64,000 bases of DNA, from assembly GCA_037033305.1 (NCBI GenBank), contig JAZBLP010000009.1, forward strand, positions 187-64,186, in the 5' to 3' direction. This stretch comes from Actinomycetota bacterium. Its GTDB lineage: Bacteria; Actinomycetota; Actinomycetes; Actinomycetales; Microbacteriaceae. Positions 2,464-16,605 of this stretch are shown piece after piece (positions within the stretch are counted from its first letter, which is position 1; each line of letters begins with the position of its first letter). Position numbers and translations under genes: made by a program. The notes under the pieces are model-generated. The model was not told where the DNA came from and did no database searches. It worked only from the letters and a program-made list of their open reading frames with translations.

Positions 2464-2736
2464 GCTTAGGCCTGAAATCGGCCGGAATTGTGCGTGAAGG
2501 TCCGTAGCCGAGACGGTCAGTAATCCCTGGTCAGAAGCCTGATTCTAGAAAATGGGCGCTACGTCCAGTTCCGCACCCTCTCGAAATCATCCTGACTGAA
2601 TCCTGACTGGAGCGGATGCGGCTACCCATGCCGCGAGACGCCTAGATGGTGCACCTGTGCACGAAATCATGTGCCGTTCAGAGCAAGTCTCGATGGCGCA
2701 GAGCCGCCCATTTAGGCCCACCCAGTTCGCTCGATA

Positions 2737-3411
2737 GTGATGAGCATGATGACTCACCGCGAAGCAGTAGCCGAACTCGAAGACCTCCGATTGTCGCAAG
2801 AGGACCGAGAGCGGATCAGGGGCGTGCTGACCCGCTGTGCTCGTCGCAGAGATGACCTGACCCGCCGACCGGCTATCGAGGAGGCCCGCGAGTTGGATGC
2901 CATCTACCGCGCCGGTCTCAGGGCGAAGTACGGAACCCTCATCGAGCGCGCCAGGTCCGCGATGCTGACCGATACCGCCTACGCCGTGGCGCTCGCTGAA
3001 TCAGCGGCGGCGAATGAGCGCCGCATCGAGTTCCGCGCCGATCCCGCACAGCAGGAAGCCGACGCCCTCCGCCTACACGCACAAGGCGCAGGACTGGATG
3101 AGATTCGGCGCGCTACTCGCATGGGCAAGGCCAGGATCAGCGAACTACTCAAGACCATCCCTGAGAAGCCGCAGAAGGCCCCTCAGAGCGTCGAGCGGGT
3201 GCGAGCCGACAGCCACACGCCCCGACCGGTGACGGTGCGCTACGTCGAGCCAACCAAGGCGCTCGACGGCGAGCAGGTCGCGCCCGGTCAGCACGGCACT
3301 CTACCGATGTACACCAACAAGAAATGTCGCTGTGACCTTTGTCGAGCCGCCGCCACCGAGTACGCGCGCCAGCGCCGCGAGCGCAAGCGTTCTGCGAATT
3401 CACCCAAGTAA
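2737..3411 (+). CDS. Hypothetical protein with internal HTH-like segment and C-terminal CxCxxC motif
   Basis: Track ORF. Contains GLDEIRRATRMGKARISELLK (HTH-like) and C-terminal HGTLPMYTNKKCRCDLCRAAATEYARQRRERKR. Confidence 0.65.
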   Translation: MMSMMTHREAVAELEDLRLSQEDRERIRGVLTRCARRRDDLTRRPAIEEARELDAIYRAGLRAKYGTLIERARSAMLTDTAYAVALAESAAANERRIEFRADPAQQEADALRLHAQGAGLDEIRRATRMGKARISELLKTIPEKPQKAPQSVERVRADSHTPRPVTVRYVEPTKALDGEQVAPGQHGTLPMYTNKKCRCDLCRAAATEYARQRRERKRSANSPK

Positions 3412-3426
3412 CACGTAAACATAAAT

Positions 3427-3460
3427 GACCCCCGCCATGCCGGGAAGCTCAGCGGGGGTC
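3427..3460 (+). terminator. Hairpin after ORF 2737..3411
   Basis: GACCCCCGC (3427-3435) pairs with GCGGGGGTC (3452-3460) across a 16-nt loop. Confidence 0.5.
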
Positions 3461-3475
3461 GAATGGAGATGAAGC

Positions 3476-4231
3476 ATGACCAGTCTACCTGGCAATAACA
3501 ACTCGATGGCCCATAAGGGTGATCAGCTAACCTATGGGGAAGAAAAAGAATTCCCTGGTCAGAATGCAATTCACCCTGCTCGTATAAGCTACCCCTTGGG
3601 GGGAGAACAAGAGGTAGAGAGAGAATACAGGAAACCTAAGAGAATCCCCGCCGTCAGGCGGCTAGTGCTCCGTGATGAATCCAGCTTCCGGAACTCGAAG
3701 AACTCTTCTCGTGTGACGAACTCCGACAGGATCAACACGTATGCAATCAAGCTTGCCTACGACTACCTGAACCGTAGCTATCACTATGAGAACAAGAAAA
3801 TGCGATCTGTCGATGATGTGACCTCGCATCTGTTCTCAATCTTGGTAGACCGGCTCAAGCCCGACTACGAGACAGAGCGCGGCATGAAGGGCGTGATGAC
3901 CTACCCGATGGTTGAGCGCTACGCACAGCGCGCCGCAGAGTACGCCGTCGATGCATGGCGACCTGACTACTACGAACTGCAAGACCGGAAGGGTGCCAAG
4001 GGTGGACGCAAGAGCAAGCGTAAGCCTGAGTACACCTACCGTGACTTCCTGGCCGTCGAAGGCCTGACCCACGCCGAAGCCGCCGCCGTGCTGGGGGTTG
4101 CACCGATCACTGTTCGCAGGATGAGGGAGCGTTACAAGAAGGCTTCGCCGGTAACGGGTGACTTCCTCCCACCAGCAATCGAGCCGACGACGACGGGGCC
4201 GACCGTGGAAGAACTCATGAATTGCCTCTGA
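3476..4231 (+). CDS. Hypothetical protein with C-terminal HTH (possible replication/regulatory protein of the element)
   Basis: Track ORF in a lower-GC stretch, with GGAGA upstream of the ATG. The C-terminus LTHAEAAAVLGVAPITVRRMRERYKK resembles sigma70-region-4/HTH. There is a basic patch KGAKGGRKSKRK. Confidence 0.6.
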   Translation: MTSLPGNNNSMAHKGDQLTYGEEKEFPGQNAIHPARISYPLGGEQEVEREYRKPKRIPAVRRLVLRDESSFRNSKNSSRVTNSDRINTYAIKLAYDYLNRSYHYENKKMRSVDDVTSHLFSILVDRLKPDYETERGMKGVMTYPMVERYAQRAAEYAVDAWRPDYYELQDRKGAKGGRKSKRKPEYTYRDFLAVEGLTHAEAAAVLGVAPITVRRMRERYKKASPVTGDFLPPAIEPTTTGPTVEELMNCL

Positions 4232-4387
4232 TAAGCGCTGTGCGCCATTCTGAGCGCCTAACGCGCATTGTCAGGTATCCGTGGACCTGGAGAGAATTGC
4301 ACGCCCGCGCAGATCGCTTACAAAAGAATCTCAGAAAAAGGTGAGAATTGGTGCACTTCTCGCTTGCTCCGCGCGATAGTAGTGATT

Positions 4388-4473
4388 GAGGAAGTGCAGA
4401 GCGGTAACGGCATTCGGCTCGTCTAACCTTCACCGAATGCCGCACGAAAGCTTAAGATTCTCTGCACTTCCTC
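4388..4473. repeat. Nested perfect inverted repeats (14-bp outer stem, 10-bp inner stem); ori-like or structured-RNA element
   Basis: Outer stem: GAGGAAGTGCAGAG (4388-4401) / CTCTGCACTTCCTC (4460-4473). Inner stem: CGGCATTCGG (4408-4417) / CCGAATGCCG (4433-4442). A third partial copy GTGCACTTCTC lies at 4351-4361. Confidence 0.7.
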
Positions 4474-4492
4474 CCAGATTTCAAGGATATTC

Positions 4493-5005
4493 ATGGGAAG
4501 AACGAGTTCGGTGGCCACTCATCCGCAAGTGGCGCGCATCAATTCGATGCTGGATGACGGCGTGACCTATGCGGAAATTGCTCGCACCGTAGGTGGCACG
4601 AGCACGGCAGGAGTCGGGCGCTACGCACTTTCTCGAAAAGGCGAGCTTGCGCGCGTGCTCGACGGTGAGCCGACGACGGCGAACGTGCTCACGCGACTGA
4701 TCGAAGCCGCTGACCACGCCCGAGATTCCCGCCGACTGGCCAAGGCGACCGGTAGCCCCGTCCACCAAGCTCGAATGATCAAGGCCGAATCCGATGTCCT
4801 CACCAAGCTCATTGACGAGCTAGGCATCACGGATACATCCGTGGCCGAGTACGTGGCCGAGGCCGAGTTGTTCACCAAAGCCGTGCAAGTCATGATCCGC
4901 CGCGATCACCAAGCCGGACTTGCTCTGCTCAACGCCGTAGATAGCTTTCCCGAACTAGAGCCGTTCGCCCGAACGCTCGCTAAGTACCTAGGAATCAAAC
5001 GATGA
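4493..5005 (+). CDS. Hypothetical protein with N-terminal HTH-like segment
   Basis: Track ORF. Contains DDGVTYAEIARTVGGTSTAGVGRYAL. It is the first of four translationally coupled genes. Confidence 0.6.
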   Translation: MGRTSSVATHPQVARINSMLDDGVTYAEIARTVGGTSTAGVGRYALSRKGELARVLDGEPTTANVLTRLIEAADHARDSRRLAKATGSPVHQARMIKAESDVLTKLIDELGITDTSVAEYVAEAELFTKAVQVMIRRDHQAGLALLNAVDSFPELEPFARTLAKYLGIKR

Positions 5006-5409
5006 CCGACAAGAGCATCACCATTCACGCCAGGAGCACGGGGCTAACCGTGCCGCAGGTCACAGAAGCGGGAGACGCCGCTCCCGGCATCGTCCTCTAT
5101 CAGGGCCAGACGATCACCCTGACCCCTGCACAGGTGGACGCTACCCGCGACCGCCTAGGCAGAACATGGCTGGAGTACGACGACGCGACCCAGTGCCAGA
5201 AGTGGGGCATGGTCAAGTTCGGGATCGGACCGGCACCCGAGGGAATGGGTATCGGGGAGGACGATGACCACCTGTGGTTCAAGCGCGCGATCACCGCGCT
5301 CGACGCCGCGAAGAAGATCACGAACCCCGTTGAGCGCAAGGCCGCACTTCAGGCCGTGAACGCTGAGTTCGGCAAGTACCTCGTAGACCTGCATCAGGAC
5401 TCCCGATGA
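5002..5409 (+). CDS. Hypothetical protein
   Basis: Track ORF. Its start overlaps the previous stop (ATGA at 5002-5005). Confidence 0.55.
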   Translation: MTDKSITIHARSTGLTVPQVTEAGDAAPGIVLYQGQTITLTPAQVDATRDRLGRTWLEYDDATQCQKWGMVKFGIGPAPEGMGIGEDDDHLWFKRAITALDAAKKITNPVERKAALQAVNAEFGKYLVDLHQDSR

Positions 5410-5555
5410 ATCCGACGGACGCCGCATTCCTCGCCACACTCGACGCCCTCCTCGCACACATGCAGGGCGAGATTCAACTAACAGAGGCCGAAGTCGAAGA
5501 CCTCGATGTGACGGTGCGCACACTCGCACAGATCGGAACGACCAATGGCAATTGA
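5406..5555 (+). CDS. Small hypothetical protein (49 aa, below the track cut-off)
   Basis: My translation: MNPTDAAFLATLDALLAHMQGEIQLTEAEVEDLDVTVRTLAQIGTTNGN*. There is an ATGA overlap with the upstream gene, and its stop overlaps the next ATG (ATGGCAATTGA). Confidence 0.45.
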   Translation: MNPTDAAFLATLDALLAHMQGEIQLTEAEVEDLDVTVRTLAQIGTTNGN

Positions 5556-5769
5556 CGACGCATGGCTGAGGGCCATCATCGCGGACAACAAGGAAGCTGA
5601 GCGCGCCGCTGAGGCTGACAAGAAGAACTTCTATCAGTGGACTGAGGCGGACATCGCCAAGGCGCTGGACCCGAACAATCGCGAAGTGCGCCGCCTGACT
5701 TCCGCTCCGGCACAGAATCCCGAGGTCGAACGCCTGGCAGGGTTGCTAGGCGACCTCCTCGACAAGTAG
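5545..5769 (+). CDS. Hypothetical protein
   Basis: Track ORF (74 aa), last gene of the coupled quartet, followed by a strong hairpin. Confidence 0.5.
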   Translation: MAIDDAWLRAIIADNKEAERAAEADKKNFYQWTEADIAKALDPNNREVRRLTSAPAQNPEVERLAGLLGDLLDK

Positions 5770-5833
5770 AACTCTGCGCGCTCTTGTCGGGGCCGCGCAG
5801 ATCATCGCCCCGTGTCAGGCCGGGGCGACCTCC

Positions 5834-5877
5834 ACAGCCCTCCCGGCTTTTCGTCTAGGTCCAGCCGGGAGGGCTGT
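5834..5877 (+). terminator. Strong hairpin terminator (15-bp perfect stem)
   Basis: ACAGCCCTCCCGGCT (5834-5848) pairs with AGCCGGGAGGGCTGT (5863-5877) across a 14-nt loop. Confidence 0.65.
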
Positions 5878-5904
5878 CCTATGCCCATCTCAAAACCATG
5901 ACTT

Positions 5905-6015
5905 TGAGACATCCGTTACACCCGATGGCTAGTTGTACGGATAGCGGCTATTCTCCGTCTCGAAAGCTGTATCTGTGACTTGTCTCAGAAGTGTGTAACG
6001 GATACAGTGTGAGAC
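5905..6015. promoter_or_regulatory. Inverted/direct repeat cluster directly upstream of the serine recombinase gene (candidate res/recombination or operator site)
   Basis: ATCCGTTACAC (5911-5921) is the reverse complement of GTGTAACGGAT (5993-6003). TGAGACA (5905-5911) is the reverse complement of TGTCTCA (5981-5987). TGAGAC recurs at 6010-6015. Confidence 0.5.
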
Positions 6016-6597
6016 ATGACCACTCAGAAGACGTTCGGCTACATCCGAGTCTCGACCGCCGCGCAGAACCTCGACCGTCAGACGGATGCTCTCGTGGCGG
6101 CTGGCATCGACCCCGCCGACATCTACGCCGACAAGATCAGCGGCGTGAAGACCACTCGCCCCGGTCTCGATGACCTCCTCAGCAGAGTTCGCGACGGGGA
6201 CCGTATACAGGTGACCTCGCTTGACCGTCTGGGACGCTCTGCCCTGCACGTGCTCAGCACGATTGCCGAGCTTGAGGAACGCGGCGTCACCGTGCTCAGC
6301 CTCAAGGATGGCGAGAACATGACCGGCGCGACGGGCAAGCTCATGCGCGGCCTCATGACCCTTATGGCTGAGTGGGAGCGCGAGATGAACGCCGAGCGCG
6401 TTGCAGAGGCTAGGGCCGCTCGTGCCGCTCGTGCTCAGGCGGGTGAGCAGGTAGCAGGACGGCCACGTACGGCCCTCTCCCCGTCGAAGGTGGCAGAGGT
6501 ACACAAGCTCAAGGCCAAGGGCCGCACGCCCTCTGAAATCGCCAAGCTGGCAGGCATGAGCCGCGCGAGCGTATACCGCGCTCTGAGCGCCACCTGA
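6016..6597 (+). CDS. Small serine recombinase (resolvase/invertase family) with C-terminal HTH
   Basis: Track ORF. Contains FGYIRVSTAAQNLDRQ (catalytic Ser motif), LDRLGRS, and C-terminal GRTPSEIAKLAGMSRASVYRAL. Confidence 0.9.
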   Translation: MTTQKTFGYIRVSTAAQNLDRQTDALVAAGIDPADIYADKISGVKTTRPGLDDLLSRVRDGDRIQVTSLDRLGRSALHVLSTIAELEERGVTVLSLKDGENMTGATGKLMRGLMTLMAEWEREMNAERVAEARAARAARAQAGEQVAGRPRTALSPSKVAEVHKLKAKGRTPSEIAKLAGMSRASVYRALSAT

Positions 6598-6600
6598 GGC

Positions 6601-6993
6601 CTATGGAAGGGTGATTCGCTCCGTGGGGCCGTCAGTCTCCGTAGCCGTTGCTGAACCCTTCGACTGTGACGGCTCTGGCCACTCATCGAGCAGTGCAGAG
6701 AGCCGATCCCGCTCGCGCTCCAAGAGCTTCCGGTGATCCTGCCCGTGCACCCTAGCCCAAGCGGGGAACTTTGGCTTATCCATGAGCCTGCCCAGCCGTT
6801 CGCTCGTCGTCAGGTACTCGATACGGAAGCTGGCCAGTTCCCGCGCCCATTGCGTCCGCTGGCGAGCTTCCCACTGCTCGATGCTGTCGCCCCTATGCGC
6901 CGCCGTCCTGCACTTGGATGAGCAGAACCTGGCATCACTCCGCCGCGCCTTGAACTCGCGTCCACATCTGTTACACGTCACGTTGTGTGTCAC
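6601..6993 (-). CDS. Hypothetical zinc-ribbon protein
   Basis: Track ORF, GTG start. N-terminal CNRCGREFKARRSDARFCSSKCR carries four Cys arranged as CxxC..CxxxC. Confidence 0.55.
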   Translation of the reverse strand: MTHNVTCNRCGREFKARRSDARFCSSKCRTAAHRGDSIEQWEARQRTQWARELASFRIEYLTTSERLGRLMDKPKFPAWARVHGQDHRKLLERERDRLSALLDEWPEPSQSKGSATATETDGPTERITLP

Positions 6994-7036
6994 AGTTAGG
7001 CCTCATCTCGGTTAATCTCATCGTATGGTGCAGTGC

Positions 7037-7231
7037 TCACGTCGCGTCACGCTCCCCGGCCTCAAGCCAAGCGTTCACATCGCTACGGCGGTAACGGATA
7101 CGCCCACCAGCGCGGATGAAGCGGGGACCCGTCCCGCGATAGCGCATCTGCGCAAGAGCAGGGACGGAGCGCCCGAGCAACGCGGCGAGCGTGGCAGGGG
7201 TCATGAGTTGTTCGTCTGTGTTCGTCGTCAT
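7037..7231 (-). CDS. xis: Excisionase / MerR-AlpA-type HTH DNA-binding protein
   Basis: Track ORF (64 aa). LMTPATLAALLGRSVPALAQMRYRGTGPRFIRAGGRIRYRRSDVNAWLE is the classic excisionase-family HTH. Divergent from the integrase gene. Confidence 0.8.
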   Translation of the reverse strand: MTTNTDEQLMTPATLAALLGRSVPALAQMRYRGTGPRFIRAGGRIRYRRSDVNAWLEAGERDAT

Positions 7232-7314
7232 GGTGCATCTATACGCACGACCTCGACCGTTTCCAAAAGGTCACCCAACTTAACGAATCGACCACTGAGC
7301 CGTAGGGATAGAGC

Positions 7315-8505
7315 ATGAGCAAATCAGCATGGATCGCGGACAGGTGGAGGGGCGAGAAGACGGGCACCGGCCTCAGGTGGCGCGTCGTATGGATCGATCC
7401 CGATACCAAGCGCGAGAAGAGCAAGAGCTTTCGGAAGAAGACTGACGCCGACGCCTTCCGCACCAAGACGGAAGACAGCTTGCGGGGTGACACGTACGTG
7501 TCGCCGCAGATCGCGGCGCTCACTGTCGCAGACGCCGCCGAGGCATGGATGAACTCGAAGAAGAGGATCAAGGCCGCCGCTCGTCGTAAGTACCGTGACG
7601 ACCTCGACAACTACGCTCTGCCACGCTGGGGCCATCTACCCCTGAGCGCCGTCAAGCGTCCCGACATCGAGAAGTGGATCAGTGACCTTGCAGACGGCAC
7701 CGCGCCCCGCAGAGCCGACGCTAAGGCCTTCTCAGGCGTACTCTCCCCCGCGAGCATCGATGGTGTCTTCACCGTCCTGAACGCTTCCCTCCGGTACGCA
7801 GTGCGAGAGGGCTGGATCAGGCAGAACCCGGCGACCGGCGTGGAGACTCCGAAGGCGAAGACGGAACCCGTCATCTTCCTGACTCATCCTGAACTCGAAG
7901 CACTCATCGACGGCACCCGGCAGGCGGGCAACCTGAGCGATGCTGTCATGGTCGCAGTGATGGGGAACATCGGCCTGAGGCCCGGTGAGGCCGTCGCGCT
8001 CGACGTGGCCGACGTGGACATCCCCGCTAAGCGTATTTACGTCTCGAAGACGGTAACGCTTGACGATGACCGCCGTCACGTGATCGGGGACTCTCCGAAG
8101 ACGGCGGCGGGCATCCGCGCAGTACCGATCCCGCCGCATCTGCTCGATGACCTCGACGCGCTCACCAAGGGCCGCGACGACGGCGAACCCCTCTTCACGT
8201 CACCACGGGGCGACCGGCTCAACCTGTACAACTGGCGCGCGCGGAACTGGACCAAGGCCAAGCAAGCGGCAGGGGCACCGGCAGGCCTGACCCCGAAGGG
8301 ACTGAGGCACACTGCCGCATCGCTCGCCATCGCGGCAGGGGCTGACGTGCTCGTGGTTCAACGGATGCTGGGTCACGCCAGCGCGACCGAAACACTCAAC
8401 ACGTACGCGAAGCTGTGGCCGGATCGGTTGGACGAAGTGACAGCGGCGATGTCGAAGGCCAGGACCGAAGCCCTGACTAAGCCTGACCGCTCCCGCTCAT
8501 CCTGA
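7315..8505 (+). CDS. int: Tyrosine-type site-specific integrase
   Basis: Track ORF. Has an N-terminal SAM-like/arm-binding region. The C-terminal catalytic box LRHTAASLAIAAGADVLVVQRMLGHASATETLNTYAKLW shows the R..H-x-x-R..Y pattern. Adjacent to the tRNA attachment site. Confidence 0.92.
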   Translation: MSKSAWIADRWRGEKTGTGLRWRVVWIDPDTKREKSKSFRKKTDADAFRTKTEDSLRGDTYVSPQIAALTVADAAEAWMNSKKRIKAAARRKYRDDLDNYALPRWGHLPLSAVKRPDIEKWISDLADGTAPRRADAKAFSGVLSPASIDGVFTVLNASLRYAVREGWIRQNPATGVETPKAKTEPVIFLTHPELEALIDGTRQAGNLSDAVMVAVMGNIGLRPGEAVALDVADVDIPAKRIYVSKTVTLDDDRRHVIGDSPKTAAGIRAVPIPPHLLDDLDALTKGRDDGEPLFTSPRGDRLNLYNWRARNWTKAKQAAGAPAGLTPKGLRHTAASLAIAAGADVLVVQRMLGHASATETLNTYAKLWPDRLDEVTAAMSKARTEALTKPDRSRSS

Positions 8506-8560
8506 CTACATCCTGAACGGCCTCTGAGGAGCTAGCCGGGATCGCTGGAGCCGGATACAC

Positions 8561-8588
8561 GAAAACCCCCGGATAACCAGGGGTTTTC
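8561..8588. terminator. Hairpin between the integrase gene and tRNA-Arg
   Basis: GAAAACCCC (8561-8569) pairs with GGGGTTTTC (8580-8588) across a 10-nt loop. A/T runs flank it on both sides, so it could act bidirectionally. Confidence 0.55.
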
Positions 8589-8610
8589 TATGCTTACTGT
8601 CTCAACACAG

Positions 8611-8649
8611 TGTGCGCCCGAAGGGACTCGAACCCCTAACCTTCTGATC
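8611..8649. repeat. att direct repeat, tRNA-proximal copy
   Basis: 38 of 39 positions identical to 2425-2463. Overlaps the 3' half of tRNA-Arg. Confidence 0.9.
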
Positions 8650-8685
8650 CGTAGTCAGATGCTCTATCCATTGAGCTACGGGCGC
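8613..8685 (-). tRNA. tRNA-Arg (anticodon ACG)
   Basis: The reverse complement GCGCCCGTAGCTCAATGGATAGAGCATCTGACTACGGATCAGAAGGTTAGGGGTTCGAGTCCCTTCGGGCGCA folds as a cloverleaf. Acceptor is GCGCCCG/CGGGCGC, anticodon loop is CTACGGA, T-loop is TTCGAGT. CCA is not encoded. Confidence 0.93.
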
Positions 8686-8751
8686 TCCTGGACCGCTCAG
8701 CGGGCCGTAGAACAGCCTACAACAGACGCGACGCGAAAGCGAAACGAGCGC

Positions 8752-10302: not shown

Positions 10303-11166
10303 TCAGCCGACCGCGCCGACCCAGATCCCCGACGCCCACGCCTGCTGATCGGCATCGCATCCGACGGATCCCGGATAACCCCGCACGACCGCCATGCAGT
10401 TCGCGAGGAACTCGGGGTCACCGCCGAACGCCGAGTAGTAGGCATCCGAGGATGTCAGGGCGCTCCACACCCGGAACTGGTAGATGTGCGCCAGCTCGTG
10501 CGCCATCGCCCAGTTCAGTCGGTCGGCGCTCCAGTCGACGATGTCGGCCCGGTATTTGATGAAGCCACCGCTGTTCGCGCATGCGGGCGCGGTTCCCCCT
10601 GCACACGAGGCCGACTCGTAGAGCCCGACTCCCCCGCCGCCCACCTGGTCGAGAGCCGCGCGCACTCGTGCGAACCCGTCCGGACCGCTCGACGACCACG
10701 CGGGGCCCGAGGGAGCCGCATACTGCGCCGCCTCCCAGCTGCCGATGTCCTGCCCCACCTTGTCGATGAGGGCATGCACGGTGGCGGTGGCAGCGACCAC
10801 GGTGGCCGGGTTCTTCCGCTCGTCGAGCACGGCCTGCTGGGCCGACTGCGCGGATGCCCGGTGCGCCGAGGTGTCGACCTTGCCGGTCGCTCCTTCGATC
10901 GCCGCAGTCAGTGCGTGGATCTCGTCGACGAAGGCCGGCCGCACCTCGAGCACGGCGGCGCGCGCCGCCGCATCCTTCTCGGCGATGGCGATCGATCCTT
11001 CGAGGTGATCGGTGCGCATCTCCGCGGCCCGAGCAGACTGCGTCAGCGACTGCAGCTCGGCGATCGCGGCCGCCCTGTCTTCGTCCAGGGCCGCGGCGCG
11101 ACCGACGACGCCCGCAGCCAGCAACACGGCGGCGACGATCGTGACGGAGAGGAACCGCCGGATCAC
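10303..11166 (-). CDS. Secreted protein with N-terminal coiled-coil region and C-terminal HExxH (putative zinc metallopeptidase)
   Basis: Track ORF. Signal/anchor MIRRFLSVTIVAAVLLAAGVV, an Ala/Glu-rich helical segment, and WAMAHELAHIYQF (HExxH). Confidence 0.65.
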   Translation of the reverse strand: MIRRFLSVTIVAAVLLAAGVVGRAAALDEDRAAAIAELQSLTQSARAAEMRTDHLEGSIAIAEKDAAARAAVLEVRPAFVDEIHALTAAIEGATGKVDTSAHRASAQSAQQAVLDERKNPATVVAATATVHALIDKVGQDIGSWEAAQYAAPSGPAWSSSGPDGFARVRAALDQVGGGGVGLYESASCAGGTAPACANSGGFIKYRADIVDWSADRLNWAMAHELAHIYQFRVWSALTSSDAYYSAFGGDPEFLANCMAVVRGYPGSVGCDADQQAWASGIWVGAVG

Positions 11167-11176
11167 AGAGTTCGCC

Positions 11177-11422
11177 TCATGGCAGGAAACCCGAGGTGTC
11201 CGAGAGCAGCGTCTCCTGCTCGGCGATCGTCGTGCGCAATGCGGTCAGCTGCTCGGCGAGATGGAGATTCGCCTCGCGCGCATGGTCGAGCCGTTCCTCC
11301 GCCTGGACGACAGCCGCTCTCGCCTCGGCGAGGGCATCCACACGCTGCTGGTCCGCGACCGCGAGGAGCACCGTCCCGCCGAGGAGCAGCAGGCCTCCGG
11401 TCACGACAGCGACAGCTCTCAT
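11177..11422 (-). CDS. Small membrane-anchored coiled-coil protein
   Basis: Track ORF 11177..11470 starts at a TTG. I prefer ATG 11422, preceded by GGGAG: MRAVAVVTGGLLLLGGTVLLAVADQQRVDALAEARAAVVQAEERL.. Confidence 0.55.
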   Translation of the reverse strand: MRAVAVVTGGLLLLGGTVLLAVADQQRVDALAEARAAVVQAEERLDHAREANLHLAEQLTALRTTIAEQETLLSDTSGFLP

Positions 11423-11587
11423 ATCGCTCCCCAGGACACGACGAAATTCGGAACCGTTCCGTATGGCCAATATATCCCCGCGGGAGACCGCTCTCCAGGC
11501 CGCTTGCGGCAGCGGCAGCGCGAAAGAAGATTACGAAGAGCAGCAGGATCAGGAACATGGGCGGTCTGCACGGCGCGAACGCACCTT

Positions 11588-11901
11588 CGTGGATTTCGTG
11601 ATCTACACCCGCATCAGCCTTGACCGCACGGGCGAGGGTTGCGGGCGGCTCGCCAAGAGCAGGAGTGCCGCGTCCTGGCTGAGCGCCTGGCATGACAGCT
11701 ATCCACGTATTTAGCGACAACGACACCACCGCCATGAGCGGAAAGGTGCGCGCCCCAGCTTTGAAGCCAGGTGTGTGGGGCGGCCTATCGATGGACGCCA
11801 AGCGCGCCGTGCTGGATGCCCTCGTGACGGTGACCATCCTGGCCAGCGGCAGCGGCAAGGCGTTCGATCTGGAGACCGAACGCGTCACCTGGAAAGCCTA
11901 G
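11588..11901 (+). pseudogene. Remnant of a large serine recombinase (frameshifted N-terminus fused to the extreme C-terminus)
   Basis: Three frames together read (V)DFVIYTRISLDRTGEG / GLRAARQEQECRVLAERL / MTAIHVFSDNDTTAMSGKVRAPALKPG.., matching the resolvase-domain N-terminus of large serine recombinases but with at least 2 frameshifts. It then jumps directly to a C-terminal-type tail ..KRAVLDALVTVTILASGSGKAFDLETERVTWKA*. Confidence 0.7.
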
Positions 11902-11960
11902 ATTCGCATGAAAGGGCTGTTGACGTCATGTCTGACGCTGACGCACCGCACGTGGCCGGG

Positions 11961-13031
11961 CTACTCCCGTGGCAGCCGGTGTGCAGTGTCGAGTCGGAAT
12001 GCGTTCGCTCGTGCGAGCGCTCTACCGATCGGGGTGATGTAATACCCGCTGTCGGCGTGCCGATCCCACCATTCAGCGACGGCACCAAAGCTCGGCAACT
12101 CGTGAATCTTGTTCATCAGTTCGGTCCGGGCCAAGTCGTCCTGTTGGCCCAGACCAAACTCTGACGCCGCCTGGCTCATCACCGTCTGCACATATGTCTC
12201 AGATTTGCCAGCGTGGCGGAGCATCTTCTCAAGTGCAGCACCGTTCGGTACTCCGATGCGGACGTGCCCGTTCTTGAGCTCGTGAGGAAGGACGAGCACC
12301 GGCCAGGGTTCCTCAGCGAGGTCAGCGCCGACGAACTGAGGCGCTGCGTCGAAAGCGGCACCCGGAGCGATATATCCATTGAGTTGCTCCCCGTAGTACT
12401 GCTCCATTTTTTTCATTCCACTCAGAGGGTTGCGGCGGAGGGCGTTGAGGGCATCGAGATGGTCAAGCCAGTCTGTCCCCTCGGGCAGAGGCCCGTCTAG
12501 CAGGGAAGAATAAATTGATTCGAACAGGTCAAGGCCCAAAGCAATCACGGGCGATGTCGCCGTCCACTGCGCTACCGCGTTGGACACGGTTAACGCCCGT
12601 AGTGCCTCCGAATCGATACGATCCACGATGTCGATCGCACCGTCGATGCCCACGATACGTGGACGCTCGCGTGGATTCTTTGCTCGATCGATGAGCAACG
12701 CTGCCAGCATGTCGTAGTCAGCGGGACGCTCACTGGACGCCGCACCCTCTTGGGCCTTCTTGTAGGAGCGGATGAACGCAGGATCTGCGAATGAATCGAG
12801 CGCGTCAACGTTGGACAAGTTCTTGATGACCCGTTGGTCGAGCTCTTCGACCCGCGCCTGGAGTATCTGGTGCGACTCGACCGCGAACTCTTCAACGACA
12901 CGTCGAGCGTTGGCGAGCGATATCTCCTGGGCGCGCTCCTCGGTGATGCCAACGTTGACGATATAGTCGCCTGCGATCTGCACCTGCTTAGAGCCCTGGC
13001 CACCCTTCTGGCTCTGCTCGCTGCCCGTCAT
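11961..13031 (-). CDS. Hypothetical 356-aa protein (from memory resembles the uncharacterised LPO_1073/Vpar_1526-type family)
   Basis: Track ORF in lower-GC DNA. The N-terminus is SEQSQKGGQGSKQVQIAGDYIVNVGITEERAQEISL.., followed by a helical body. Its ATG overlaps the stop of the upstream small ORF (TAATG). Confidence 0.7.
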   Translation of the reverse strand: MTGSEQSQKGGQGSKQVQIAGDYIVNVGITEERAQEISLANARRVVEEFAVESHQILQARVEELDQRVIKNLSNVDALDSFADPAFIRSYKKAQEGAASSERPADYDMLAALLIDRAKNPRERPRIVGIDGAIDIVDRIDSEALRALTVSNAVAQWTATSPVIALGLDLFESIYSSLLDGPLPEGTDWLDHLDALNALRRNPLSGMKKMEQYYGEQLNGYIAPGAAFDAAPQFVGADLAEEPWPVLVLPHELKNGHVRIGVPNGAALEKMLRHAGKSETYVQTVMSQAASEFGLGQQDDLARTELMNKIHELPSFGAVAEWWDRHADSGYYITPIGRALARANAFRLDTAHRLPRE

Positions 13032-13210
13032 TACTTGTTGCCTTTCGCGTCGCGGCCAATCTGCATCTGCGTTGCGTTATCGCCAGCGCGCTGTCTCTGC
13101 TTCACCGATGAACGTTTCGACATGATGCGCCATGTGACCGTGCTACCTGCAGTACCCCCAAGGATCAAGCCGATAAGCATGGTGCCCAGCCCGTCCAAGA
13201 ACCAGTCCAC
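13031..13210 (-). CDS. Small membrane peptide (59 aa, below the track cut-off)
   Basis: My translation from GTG 13210 (GGAGGATCC immediately upstream): VDWFLDGLGTMLIGLILGGTAGSTVTWRIMSKRSSVKQRQRAGDNATQMQIGRDAKGNK*. It has one TM helix and a basic tail. The stop overlaps the ATG of the 356-aa gene. Confidence 0.5.
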   Translation of the reverse strand: MDWFLDGLGTMLIGLILGGTAGSTVTWRIMSKRSSVKQRQRAGDNATQMQIGRDAKGNK

Positions 13211-13582
13211 GGATCCTCCGCTCTCGGGTGCCGTTCACCCGTCAGTCACGATACCAACCACCGCCGATTTGTCGCCCCTCAGCTGGCGGATAGGTATGAC
13301 GGGAAATACCGGCGTCCGCAGTTGATCATCATCGAGGGCCAACGTTAGGAAGCTTCGAGTACGGTCACGCATTTGCCTGAAAGGCCCCCTTCAGGAAAAC
13401 CTTGAGACGATCGGCAATGACCCTCGGGAGCGACCATCCGCCTACGCAGCGCTGTCACTCTGCGTTCAAGCACGGCGCGAGTTGGGGCCGGAAATGACTA
13501 CGGCGCGGCATGCGTCTTCGCTTGGGCGACGCATCAGCCCGGGCTCTGGCATGATTACCAGCACATCCACCGGGAGGTTCAC

Positions 13583-15172
13583 GTGGCAATGCTCGGCCTA
13601 GATATCGTAGCGGGCGCGAAGATCGTCAAGACCGAGCAGTTTGGCGATTGGTACCGCGATCCATGGGGTTGGCCCGAGACAACCCACGAGTTCGCCGAAA
13701 CCCTTACCTTCGAAGACCTAGGCGTGTCGAAGCGGGGAAATCGATATGTCTACGAAGCTACGCCAGACTTCCATCTGTTCGACGTTCCTAAGTCATTCAT
13801 AGGCGTGCGACCCGCGGTCATCCAGGACGTGCGGAGCCGGCTGGCCTACACGGCAGCTGCAGACGGCTTGGCGGCCCGGCTGCACGCCGACCTGCCCGAG
13901 TGGGTTTACGGCTGGCGCTACCGAGATGGAATCTACGGGAGGACCAACGAATGGAAGCTGTATCAGGAAAACCAAGCTGACGTCCATCGTCAGGACTTCG
14001 CGGCTCAGACCGATATCACTTCGTTCTTTGCGTCGATAGATGTCGACAGATTGATCGACAGGATTACCGACAACGTCGGCGCGGCCAACGTTTCGACTGA
14101 CATCGTGCGGAAAGTGCTGGCTACGCATAACCTGCTTCACGGGCGAAGCGGAATACCGCAGCGCAGTTCCGCCTCCGCGTTTCTCGCTCACACCGCCTTG
14201 CGGCAGGTTGATGACCTGCTCGGGTCCCTCATGCAATCCGGGGAACTGACGGCGGCTCGGAGGTGGATGGACGACATCAGTTTTGAAGGCCCCGAGTCGG
14301 CGATGTACGGAGCGCTCTTGCAGCTTCAACAGTCTTGCCGCCAGGAGGGTCTAGAGATCAATGCCCTCAAGACAATGCTCATCTCTGGTGAACAGAGCGC
14401 TCAGCGCTTGCATGAGGAAGCGCAAGGCTTAATCAGGCTGCCCGTCACAACGACGCGCGTTACCAACGACTACGAAGACTTCGAGATGACATTCGTAGAC
14501 CGAGGGGCGTTGCAGGAGGCGGAGGAGGATGTGCTGTCGTCACCGAGCCGAGCGCCGCGATCTAAAGTTGGCATCGTCCTGAAAAGCCTCGTCCGCTACG
14601 ACGAGTACTCTCGCATCACCGATTGGATGTCAGCAGCCAAATACCTTCCGCACGCGGCGGACAAACTGAGTCGCTACTTGGCCGCTGGTAATCGCTCCCT
14701 GTGGGGGTTCGGCTTGAACCTCGCCGAATGGTTCACGGAGTTGCAGCTATCCGGATGGCCCCACGTGGAATGGGTTCAGGCACAGCACGCGCTCGCAGTT
14801 CCGTCCGAGGACGTCGATGAGGCGATGCGCGCGATTCTGGAGAGCTGGCTCAGCGAGAGCTCGAACCTCCAAAAGGTGGCGGTGGCAGTCCAACGGATCG
14901 CGGCCGCACATCCGGTTCGGTACCGAGCTTTGGTGGCCGCTCGCATGGACTCAGTACACGATCCTCTGCTGACGCGGCTCCTCGCGCTAGGCCTTCTCAT
15001 GGCCGCCCAGCCAAAGGATGGCGTGCGTCAGGCTCTTCGACGTCACCCAAGTAACGCACTGACGCTCAAGTACTTGGAGGCGAGAGATTGGCGTCTGCCC
15101 AACGTTCCAGACGACTTTGATCCGATCCATGACAACGAAGACGGCGCCGATGAATCAGAAGCGGCGCCGTAA
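13583..15172 (+). CDS. Reverse transcriptase, stand-alone, UG/Abi/DRT-like (RT core + C-terminal helical domain)
   Basis: Track ORF, GTG start after GGGAGG. RT motifs read in the translation: FDVPKSFIGVRPAVIQDVRSRL (1/2), QTDITSFFASIDVDRL (A), GIPQRSSASAFLAHTAL (B), RRWMDDISF (C), LEINALKT (D/E). About 230 aa of Leu/Ala-rich helical sequence follows. Confidence 0.88.
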   Translation: MAMLGLDIVAGAKIVKTEQFGDWYRDPWGWPETTHEFAETLTFEDLGVSKRGNRYVYEATPDFHLFDVPKSFIGVRPAVIQDVRSRLAYTAAADGLAARLHADLPEWVYGWRYRDGIYGRTNEWKLYQENQADVHRQDFAAQTDITSFFASIDVDRLIDRITDNVGAANVSTDIVRKVLATHNLLHGRSGIPQRSSASAFLAHTALRQVDDLLGSLMQSGELTAARRWMDDISFEGPESAMYGALLQLQQSCRQEGLEINALKTMLISGEQSAQRLHEEAQGLIRLPVTTTRVTNDYEDFEMTFVDRGALQEAEEDVLSSPSRAPRSKVGIVLKSLVRYDEYSRITDWMSAAKYLPHAADKLSRYLAAGNRSLWGFGLNLAEWFTELQLSGWPHVEWVQAQHALAVPSEDVDEAMRAILESWLSESSNLQKVAVAVQRIAAAHPVRYRALVAARMDSVHDPLLTRLLALGLLMAAQPKDGVRQALRRHPSNALTLKYLEARDWRLPNVPDDFDPIHDNEDGADESEAAP

Positions 15173-15604
15173 GCAAGCGCTCCTGCGCCCCCTCGAGCTC
15201 CTCTTGGCGCGCACGCACGCACACGCTCGCCGTGCCCTTCGTTCGATTCTGGGCAGCCTTCCGCGGACGCCCCTGACGGCTTTCTCTGAGATAGCCCAAC
15301 CGAAACTTCGTCCCCGCCATGCTCTGGCCATGAGCTTGCCCACGGTCCCTCGGCGCGTGGTGTCGACAACAGCTCGCATGGGCACGACTACACACTTCCG
15401 CGTCCAGCGCGGCGGGGCACGAAGGAAAACCCAGTTCAAAAGGCATGTTACCGAACTGCGCCCACCAGCGCCACGCTGCCGCATTTGGCCTACCTGGCCG
15501 GCACGTCGGGACTGCCGGTAGCTGCGGGGCCGCTCAGAGAACCCTCAGAGCCGCTCACACCGATCCCGCGCGTCGGGCCTCACCAGTCCCCGGCACAGAC
15601 CCAA

Positions 15605-15814
15605 AGGTGCGTTTACGCGATTGTTGAGAACCTCCTAGATGAGAAAAACCTCTTTGACCGCGATTTCGGCCTTGCGCACTTGTCGATGGTGAGCCTAACG
15701 GAAGCCTCGGTTCTCCACCACGAGTTCAATAAGACCGAGCAGAATCGCCTCGTGGACCGTGATCCCGATCGGTGGAGGTATGCGAACGACGACGGTGTTA
15801 TCTACCCGGAGTAA
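15605..15814 (+). other. Protein-like ORF tail (possible gene remnant or 42-aa small ORF from ATG 15686)
   Basis: Only the last ~70 codons of track ORF 15485..15814 look protein-like (VYAIVENLLDEKNLFDRDFGLAHLSMVSLTEASVLHHEFNKTEQNRLVDRDPDRWRYANDDGVIYPE). The upstream part is Pro/Gly/Ala noise with no convincing start. Confidence 0.3.
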
Positions 15815-15842
15815 TTGAAGACCGGAGTCCTAGCCGCTCGAC

Positions 15843-15881
15843 GTACCCTTGCGTGTCGTTTGATACGCAAGGGTACCTTTT
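15843..15881 (+). terminator. Strong intrinsic terminator
   Basis: GTACCCTTGCGT (15843-15854) pairs with ACGCAAGGGTAC (15865-15876) across a 10-nt loop, followed by CTTTT. Confidence 0.8.
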
Positions 15882-15945
15882 CGTAATTGTGTTGGGCATA
15901 AGTATCAGGATCTCTCTTTGCCACCAGCCTGTTCCGACCGGCTGC

Positions 15946-16605
15946 TCAGATCGAGAAGGCCTGGTCGGTGAGGCGTCGCTCGGCAGCCTGCTGGCCGCTG
16001 GCCAGATGGCGAGGGACCATCACGCGGAGGGCGTCGGTGTCACGTGCGGCGACGGCCTCGAGGATCAGCCGATGCTCTTCGGCCATCGCGAGCAGATCGT
16101 CGTGCTGGCCGAAGAGCCAGCGCAGCCGGGTGACGAACACCGCGATGAGCTCGCCCAGCATCTCGTTGCCCGCGAGCTCGGCGGAGATCTCGTGGAACTC
16201 GCCCGCAGCGATCCGTGCTGCATCGGTCTCGCCGGCGGATGCTGCGGCGAATTCGCGCTCGTAGGCGGCCCGAAGCCGCGCGATCCCCTCATCGGTGTGA
16301 CGTTCGGCGGCGAAGACGAAGATCAGGGTCTCGATCGCCTCGCGCACCTCACCGAAATCCTGGATGTCGCGATGCGTGAACTCGCGCACGACGGCCCAGG
16401 TCCGCGGGCGGGCGACAACCACTCCCTCGCCGACGAGAGTGCGGATCGCCTCGCGCACCGGAAGCCGCGAGACGTTGAGCTCGGCCGCGATATCGCGTTC
16501 GATGAGCCGGGAACCCGGGGCGCGCCGACCGAGCACGATGTCGTCGCGAAGAACGCGCGTCACCCGCACCGACTCGAGTTCGCCGGTAGTCCCCACCCCC
16601 GCCAT
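15946..16605 (-). CDS. GntR family transcriptional regulator (FadR/FCD type)
   Basis: Track ORF. Contains LIERDIAAELNVSRLPVREAIRTLVGEGVVV followed by a helical FCD-like C-terminus. Confidence 0.88.
   Translation of the reverse strand: MAGVGTTGELESVRVTRVLRDDIVLGRRAPGSRLIERDIAAELNVSRLPVREAIRTLVGEGVVVARPRTWAVVREFTHRDIQDFGEVREAIETLIFVFAAERHTDEGIARLRAAYEREFAAASAGETDAARIAAGEFHEISAELAGNEMLGELIAVFVTRLRWLFGQHDDLLAMAEEHRLILEAVAARDTDALRVMVPRHLASGQQAAERRLTDQAFSI

Follow-up and report, generated by a model that had tools for sequence, protein, structure and literature searches.

Among the reverse transcriptases (RTs) of unknown group/abortive infection (UG/Abi) type, the published Class 1 enzymes AbiK, Abi-P2, AbiA and DRT4 (DRT, defense-associated reverse transcriptase) synthesize untemplated single-stranded DNA (ssDNA) that is primed on a tyrosine (PMC9508834, PMC12783706), and this priming tyrosine is located at a different place in the four proteins (PMC12783706). 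A 2026 preprint likewise describes synthesis as untemplated in Class 1 and as templated by a noncoding RNA (ncRNA) in Class 2 (PMC13174585). One Class 1 group, UG33, was split off from former UG23 sequences by Mestre et al. 2022 (NAR; PMC9226505), and that paper names no partner gene for it. Here we analyze a 64,000-nucleotide (nt) stretch of contig JAZBLP010000009.1, from an actinobacterium of the Microbacteriaceae, which we refer to in its entirety as the window, and in particular a low-GC island at 11588-15945 that encodes an RT of 529 amino acids (aa). We find that this RT is a full-length member of UG33 that shares no partner gene and no ncRNA with its relatives. Our explanation as a whole, to which we give a rough probability of 0.7, is that at least three pieces acquired independently of one another, one of them a single-gene RT that would make protein-primed DNA, came together in a variable, defense-island-like spot.

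The assignment of the RT follows from profile searches. The protein matches the PADLOC profile RT_UG33 with 547 bits and an E value of 1.1e-164 (residues 3-513 on profile positions 3-489/490), and the second-best PADLOC profile, RT_UG23, reaches 101 bits (E 1.5e-29). The gene may instead start at the ATG at 13589. The catalytic residues are intact, namely D144 (in QTDITSFF), the WMDD motif at 228-231 with its aspartates D230 and D231, and K263; D144, WMDD and K263 are invariant in an alignment of 47 homologues with identities down to 29%. General-purpose libraries recognized little more than this core: Pfam returned only a sub-threshold match to RVT_1, the NCBIfam matches were sub-threshold and limited to the catalytic core (TIGR04416, 42.7 bits vs a cut-off of 300), and weak profile matches to Drt3a, Drt2 and retron RTs covered the catalytic core only. 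In the interval 11300-16100 there was no Rfam match to a group II intron or a retron RNA, and within 11000-16500 we found only short chance repeats (<=35 nt) and none of the template/variable (TR/VR) type that accompanies a diversity-generating retroelement (DGR). The RT is not of the group II intron, retron, DGR or CRISPR-associated type. A preliminary description of this stretch had proposed a 529-aa RT with all of its catalytic motifs, of the UG/Abi kind found in defense islands and lacking signs of a group II intron, a retron or a DGR, and these proposals are upheld by the presence of the open reading frame (ORF), by the residues invariant in the 47 homologues, by the full-length RT_UG33 match and by the combined results from Rfam, the repeat search, the profiles and Foldseek. 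It had also taken the RT for the center of an undescribed system, and on this point it was mistaken: the PADLOC search places the protein in UG33 from end to end, and it is a fresh member of an already named group, not a novel system.

The window RT resembles the remainder of UG33 in its length (about 510-550 aa in the group), in its helical C-terminal domain, in having no conserved partner and in belonging to a mostly actinobacterial set. Outside the catalytic core, the best-conserved feature of UG33 is the sequence DWYRDPWGWPE, which includes Y24. The 36 nt that encode it (13643-13678) exhibit 85-97% DNA identity even to RT genes whose products are less than 30% identical to the window protein, with 97% in L024; this high identity probably reflects the presence of Trp and Pro codons combined with GC bias.

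An AlphaFold2 (AF2) model of the RT, built on the 47 homologues, was obtained with high confidence (predicted local distance difference test, pLDDT, 90.9; predicted template modeling score, pTM, 0.90). In this model a fingers and palm domain occupies residues ~1-305 and is followed at 308-500 by helices only, which form an alpha-helical repeat domain, so that an alphaRep-type C-terminal domain is predicted to be present and a canonical thumb to be absent. Foldseek searches of the PDB returned full-length alignments to AbiK (TM 0.58), DRT6 (0.56/0.60), AbiA (0.50), DRT4/UG15 (0.47) and Abi-P2 (0.45). The thumb-bearing RTs of group II introns, retrons and DRT9, on the other hand, aligned over the RT core only, with TM scores of ~0.35 or less. 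Because of the helical C-terminal domain and the full-length matches to Abi and DRT polymerases, we assign a Class 1 architecture to the window RT. It shares with AbiK, Abi-P2, AbiA, DRT4 (UG15) and DRT6 a two-lobed shape, a helical repeat domain that replaces the thumb and a single-gene organization, but differs from them in sequence, with only 8-14% identity and with profile matches confined to the catalytic core, and in its N-terminal GDWYRDPWGWPE motif, which is specific to its own lineage. The Class 2 enzymes (DRT2, DRT9, DRT10 and Drt3a) and the retrons, which do have a role in defense, have the RT catalytic core in common with the window protein; the latter, however, has no conserved adjacent ncRNA, and its C-terminal domain is helical, as is typical of Class 1.

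We then asked what accompanies this RT elsewhere. A total of 36 RT loci, representing 30 distinct places, were collected: 27 genome loci with RT relatives of 27-55% identity, mostly from Actinomycetota, one locus with an 86%-identical RT (L028), three copies of a 69%-identical RT (L029-L031) and five 32-kb plasmids of Mycobacterium, almost identical to one another, of which one was inspected. In the window the RT is adjoined by two minus-strand genes that encode a 356-aa protein of the LPO_1073/Vpar_1526 family and a 59-aa peptide (Table 1), and tblastn with these two proteins found no match in the 31 RT loci taken from genomes and metagenomes, where the best E was 0.6-1.7. In the inspected Mycobacterium plasmid no gene annotated as belonging to the Vpar_1526 family was present near the lone RT. 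Two all-against-all clusterings of the neighboring ORFs revealed nothing in common except tyrosine integrases, which were sporadic and variable in position. In L028, where the nucleotide identity is 82%, the DNA match is restricted to 13539-15133 and a permissive search adds nothing. Since this match begins 44 nt upstream of the RT start and ends downstream while still within the 3' part of the gene, only these 44 nt, including GGGAGG at 13572-13577, travel with the RT. Across the loci compared, no conserved partner gene or ncRNA was found. PADLOC was also run on 119 ORFs from 29 loci that lie no farther than 3 kb from the RT. The matches comprised LmuA, MADS mad3/mad8, AriA, PtuA, GajA, Old, AbiLi, SspH and type I methylases, and each family accounted for at most 5 of these ORFs. 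This indicates that the RT relatives sit in a defense-island setting without a fixed partner. They are patchily distributed over plasmids and over islands that bear integrases, and the IMG/VR viral contigs yielded no UG33 RT. As a whole, these data make it very likely that the RT is a stand-alone enzyme within an island of mosaic architecture.

Two of these loci deserve comment in their own right. In L028, two DUF7882 genes (5928-6224 and 12768-13196) flank a ~6.5-kb block of unknown genes that includes the RT, and this block lies inside a Tad/type II secretion system (T2SS) pilus cluster, which suggests another insertion hotspot with other cargo. In L029 (5348-6808; also in L030 and L031), a 486-aa protein with weak matches to the AAA_16 ATPases is encoded 66 nt upstream of the RT on the same strand, and a divergent AAA_25 gene is also found near this 69%-identical RT. 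The 486-aa gene is not common to other RT loci and may be a lineage-specific neighbor.

Table 1. Features of the low-GC island, in window coordinates
Feature	Position	Strand	Evidence or description
Large serine recombinase remnant	11588-11901	+	Subtercola alignment; weak Pfam Resolvase match
356-aa LPO_1073/Vpar_1526-family protein	11961-13031	-	NF045477 / PF28206
59-aa peptide	13031-13210	-	N-terminal hydrophobic helix, C-terminal Q-rich motif
Junction spacer	13211-13582		372 nt; blastn, no Rfam match
Stand-alone UG33 RT	13583-15172	+	529 aa; RT_UG33 profile, AF2 model, Foldseek
Higher-GC stretch	15173-15595		~420 nt, GC 0.67, no coding periodicity
5'-truncated dCTP-deaminase-domain (PF22769 DCD) remnant	15596-15814	+	last 72 codons
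Terminator-like hairpin	15843-15876	+	15-pair stem, 4-nt loop, T-rich tail

The two genes that diverge from the RT form a bicistron, in which the peptide gene and the 356-aa gene overlap by one base (TAATG), just as the preliminary description had it, and are translationally coupled. The larger protein scores 65.9 bits against NCBIfam NF045477 (cut-off 45). PF28206 is precomputed on all 39 of its homologues; a direct Pfam scan of the 356-aa protein itself gave no match and did not report PF28206. PADLOC had no match to either bicistron protein. The Vpar_1526 family is large and extends across phyla and onto viral contigs: among 1.84 billion representatives, 2149 clusters were matched in a profile search, 458 of them at E <= 1e-30. 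The only mention of it that we found in the literature is the detection of Vpar_1526 in membrane fractions of Veillonella (PMC5491611). The AF2 model of the 356-aa protein (pLDDT 88.6, pTM 0.80) is disordered over residues 1-27, confident over the remainder and mostly helical, and Foldseek found no significant match for it, the best E values being 0.18 in the PDB and 0.019 in BFVD. The peptide has a Kyte-Doolittle hydrophobicity of 1.43 in a 19-residue window (1.9-2.0 in its relatives), is 81% identical to a 60-aa peptide in Subtercola and 71% identical to one in Microbacterium, and has analogous counterparts in Aliivibrio and on three viral contigs. It is a conserved partner of Vpar_1526.

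The settings in which this pair recurs differ from that of the RT. In Subtercola, whose DNA is homologous to that of the window over 11960-13240 and no farther, the peptide gene again overlaps the Vpar_1526 gene, and an intact serine recombinase of 436 aa lies convergent to the pair, at the place that the remnant occupies in the window. In Microbacterium sp. LBN7 the pair adjoins a nucleoside triphosphatase (NTPase) of 1222 aa, and in Aliivibrio it lies among HNH, SLATT, GmrSD and HEPN genes. The pair is also present on five IMG/VR contigs with GC values between 0.32 and 0.58, two of which encode its halves as a single ORF; in-frame fusions of the peptide to the Vpar protein were noted in L039, L040, P0249, P0271 and P0217. 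No RT was seen beside the pair in 11 Vpar_1526 loci, six of which are genomic loci without an RVT-family product among their called genes. The bicistron is a module of its own that recurs without the RT. It would encode a membrane-tethered protein in two parts, the halves of which associate. In one Aliivibrio locus (L037, ~5150-5362), the peptide gene upstream of Vpar_1526 contains an in-frame stop (MNWIIENKE*LFSG...) and is intact in the sister strain L036; the stop may mark an inactivated peptide half.

At the left end of the island is a large serine recombinase remnant that the preliminary description had rightly called frameshifted and internally deleted. In a local search, the segment 11779-11895 aligns to residues 396-435/436 of the intact recombinase of Subtercola frigoramans with E 1e-8; tblastn of that recombinase on the whole window missed the remnant. 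The N-terminal piece, when its frame is repaired (VDFVIYTRISLDRTGEG / LRAARQEQECRVLAERL / MTAIHVFSDNDTTAMSGK), matches positions 2-49 of the Pfam Resolvase profile with E 0.014, which falls short of the cut-off. Some 55 codons are kept at the N-terminus and 40 at the C-terminus, in different frames, and ~330 internal codons are gone; it is because both end pieces are matched and the middle is missing that we regard the gene as frameshifted and internally deleted. No ORF encodes an intact Resolvase, Recombinase and zinc-ribbon together, and the remnant is a non-functional pseudogene. Like the large serine recombinase elements of actinobacteria it retains the resolvase N-terminus, the extreme C-terminus and the convergent position, but it differs from them in its frameshifts and in being ~330 internal codons short. 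Since the intact Subtercola recombinase is at the same relative position, convergent to the bicistron, the remnant belongs with the bicistron and is the decayed vehicle of that module, not of the RT. The earlier view of it as a delivery scar is therefore correct as regards a mobile vehicle, and incorrect in extending this to the whole island.

The spacer between the divergent genes is present with the length and position first described for it, and each of its ends goes with the gene next to it: 13211-13240 with the bicistron (the blastn match to L032 ends at 13240) and 13539-13582 with the RT (the blastn match to L028 begins at 13539). The middle ~300 nt are conserved with neither. The spacer is a junction and not a conserved element. 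A scan for sigma-70 promoters performed no better than on shuffled sequences.

On the other side of the RT, the preliminary description had noted an ORF-poor tail of ~670 nt closed by a terminator. The hairpin is real, with its 15 pairs, but the tail is not merely ORF-poor, for it holds the remnant of a gene with a dCTP deaminase domain (dcd-like). The ORF 15485-15814 matches P0160, a 191-aa DCD-domain protein of Salinibacterium, and in a local search 15596-15814 is 63% identical to residues 121-191 of that protein (E 2e-30). DNA homology extends over 15627-15813, and codon-position GC shows coding periodicity at 15590-15770. Since only residues 121-191 of 191 are encoded, the gene is 5'-truncated; a full-length DCD domain is absent from it. 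Between this remnant and the RT stop, 15173-15595 has a higher GC content than the remaining island; no homology was found for it and it is not conserved downstream of the RT relatives. The hairpin stem consists of 12 perfect pairs followed by a G-T wobble and two more pairs, with CTTTTCG after it, and the fold energy of 15831-15895 is -28.4 kcal/mol. The hairpin lies 29 nt past the stop of the dcd-like remnant and 670 nt past that of the RT, and it is not conserved in Salinibacterium; to judge by position only, it belongs to the truncated dcd-like gene and is not an RT-linked RNA. We considered the dcd-like remnant as a partner of the RT and rejected it, since it is absent from all the RT loci and the Salinibacterium copy is next to an unrelated restriction-modification (R-M) island, which the intact gene borders. 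The intact Salinibacterium protein has no PADLOC match.

The composition of the island bears out the claim that it is lower in GC than its surroundings, with 0.603 compared with 0.674 for the remainder of the window. Equal-sized windows have a mean GC of 0.670 with a standard deviation (sd) of 0.025, and the island is ~2.7 sd lower. GC at third codon positions (GC3) is ~0.70 in the RT and 356-aa genes, compared with 0.84-0.86 in the genes for GntR and the membrane protein on either side. Low GC is not unique to the RT island, the stretch at ~2.5-7.3 kb being equally low. The island DNA had no match in plasmid or phage collections, and an Rfam scan of 11300-16100 gave no family at E <= 1. The second low-GC island (window 2500-8700, GC 0.55-0.62) contains a tyrosine integrase (7315-8505, plus strand) that abuts a tRNA-Arg (8612-8685, minus strand), as well as a small serine resolvase (6016-6597), a helix-turn-helix (HTH) protein (3476-4231) and several family-less ORFs, and it looks like a separate tRNA-integrated element. 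The idea that the RT island forms a single element with this tRNA-Arg island (2.5-8.5 kb) was discarded, because ~3 kb of high-GC core genes lie between them and because the integrase abuts the tRNA on the side that faces away from the RT island.

What, then, is the relationship of these pieces to one another and what might the RT do? The preliminary description had joined the RT, the transmembrane (TM) peptide, the 356-aa protein and the noncoding flanks into one undescribed multi-gene system of DRT type. The pieces are indeed adjacent, with the bicistron and the RT diverging across the 372-nt spacer, and they have in common a lowered GC with a GC3 of ~0.70. However, the gene-neighborhood comparison showed no co-occurrence of this partner set in the 31 RT loci and no RT in the 11 Vpar_1526 loci, the central 300 nt of the spacer are conserved with neither module, and the RT comes from a group that is treated as partnerless. 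The idea of a single new system, in which an RT already named UG33 would act with what are in fact unrelated modules, is largely refuted by this neighborhood analysis, and we judge it highly improbable; a shared low-GC island and adjacency do not make one system. Scarcely more probable is a mode of action like that of the Class 2 DRTs (DRT2, DRT9, DRT10 and Drt3a) or of a retron, in which the RT would copy a structured ncRNA located in the spacer or the tail. Long stretches without an intact gene do lie on either side of the RT, and the catalytic core has its weak matches to the Drt3a, Drt2 and retron profiles. Yet Rfam finds nothing there, no flank is conserved past 44 nt in spite of 82% nucleotide identity across the gene, the downstream tail holds a dead dcd-like gene, and the RT has a helical C-terminal domain, as do the Class 1 polymerases, of which the published ones are untemplated. 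Unlikely as well, although less so, is a non-defense role for the RT or its presence as an inert passenger, possibilities already raised for some few UG groups. Mestre et al. 2022 (PMC9226505) describe the defense prediction for UG33 as inconclusive, and the missing RT on IMG/VR viral contigs would fit such a role. Against it stand the patchy distribution, the integrase-bearing islands and plasmids and the assorted known defense genes around the RT, as well as the retention of all catalytic and family-invariant residues in 47 homologues down to 29% identity, which argues for purifying selection on the RT.

We therefore return to the reading of a stand-alone UG33 RT in a mosaic island, to which a mechanism can be attached by analogy. 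The RT would prime on one of its own tyrosines, the candidates being Y24 (in the GDWYRDPWGWPE motif) and Y127, both of which are at least 90% conserved among the homologues, and would produce protein-primed, untemplated ssDNA. A phage factor would turn this activity toxic, leading to abortive infection. As for the neighbors, a serine-recombinase element, now decayed, would have delivered the peptide/Vpar_1526 module, and the 3' tail would represent a dead dCTP-deaminase-like gene together with its terminator. The chemistry is proposed from that of the published Class 1 enzymes, and we would give protein-primed untemplated synthesis by this RT somewhat better than even odds. From the same likeness and from the genes around its relatives we infer a biochemical activity and an anti-phage role for the enzyme. 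Several considerations weigh against this picture. The choice of priming residue is a guess, and because the priming tyrosines differ in place among the Class 1 enzymes, position gives no guidance. Nothing sets the window RT apart from UG33, and the inconclusive defense prediction for this group, mentioned above, applies to it. The PADLOC scan of the neighbors is a plain count, with no enrichment statistic. Lastly, a recent and lineage-specific coupling of the RT to the divergent bicistron may have occurred, the relatives examined being at most 86% identical.

The bicistron invites a separate comparison, with Bab/Agp, an amyloid-signaling Abi system of Escherichia coli (bioRxiv 10.1101/2024.11.07.622273). 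A motif that approximates Q-x-Q-K-[AG]-G-x-x-[SA]-x-Q-x-Q is found both at the C-terminus of the peptide and at the N-terminus of the Vpar_1526 protein (for example, QRQRAGDNATQMQI vs QSQKGGQGSKQVQI). This observation was made in the window (11961-13210), in L032, L034, L036 and L039-L043 and in P0185, P0217, P0249 and P0271. The similarity of the two copies exceeds that of shuffled tails in six of seven non-redundant pairs, with z between 2.8 and 7.1, and the fused proteins contain one to three tandem copies in their linker. If this were a matched-motif cell-death switch of the Bab/Agp type, infection would be sensed, and the N-terminal motif of the Vpar protein would template the motif on the membrane peptide, with membrane damage as the result. 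Much of the arrangement is as such a switch would have it: the genes are adjacent and overlapping, a hydrophobic N-terminal helix and a C-terminal motif are combined on the peptide, the large partner has the motif too, at an N-terminus that is disordered in the model, fused "all-in-one" forms exist, and the pair is found in defense-island and viral-contig settings. The identical layout is proven for Bab/Agp, in which a small protein with a hydrophobic N-terminal helix and a C-terminal motif is encoded, in a mobile or defense-island setting, beside a gene whose product starts with that motif. There are differences, however. The small partner in the window is a bare 59-aa peptide with no Bell-like domain, and the large one belongs to the Vpar_1526 family, with no NLR, TPR, PIN or nuclease domain and no known fold. 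Nor was pair-specific matching significant: motif similarity within pairs was not significantly above that between pairs (321/5040 permutations, p ~0.06), and the notion that the motifs co-vary within pairs was dropped when this test gave it no support. With one to three tandem copies in the fused linkers, the motif may be a mere juxtamembrane repeat, the split between the genes falling between copies. We regard it as doubtful, on this analogy, that the bicistron is such a switch, and equally so the particular sequence of sensing, templating and membrane damage. The same degree of doubt attaches to the broader proposal that the pair might be a membrane-acting abortive-infection or exclusion module whose halves communicate through the Q-rich motif in the manner of Bab/Agp, with another sensor.

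These results bear on both families. As a clean single-gene unit that comprises the gene and the ~44 nt preceding it, has a Class 1 fold and occurs among assorted defense genes in many Actinomycetota, the UG33 RT lends itself readily to cloning and testing. Of the two, the bicistron holds more interest as a lead, since it belongs to a large unstudied family in which the two halves are either split or fused and have a motif in common. If the pair is a defense module, it would provide a new sensor fold for motif-mediated cell-death signaling in bacteria.

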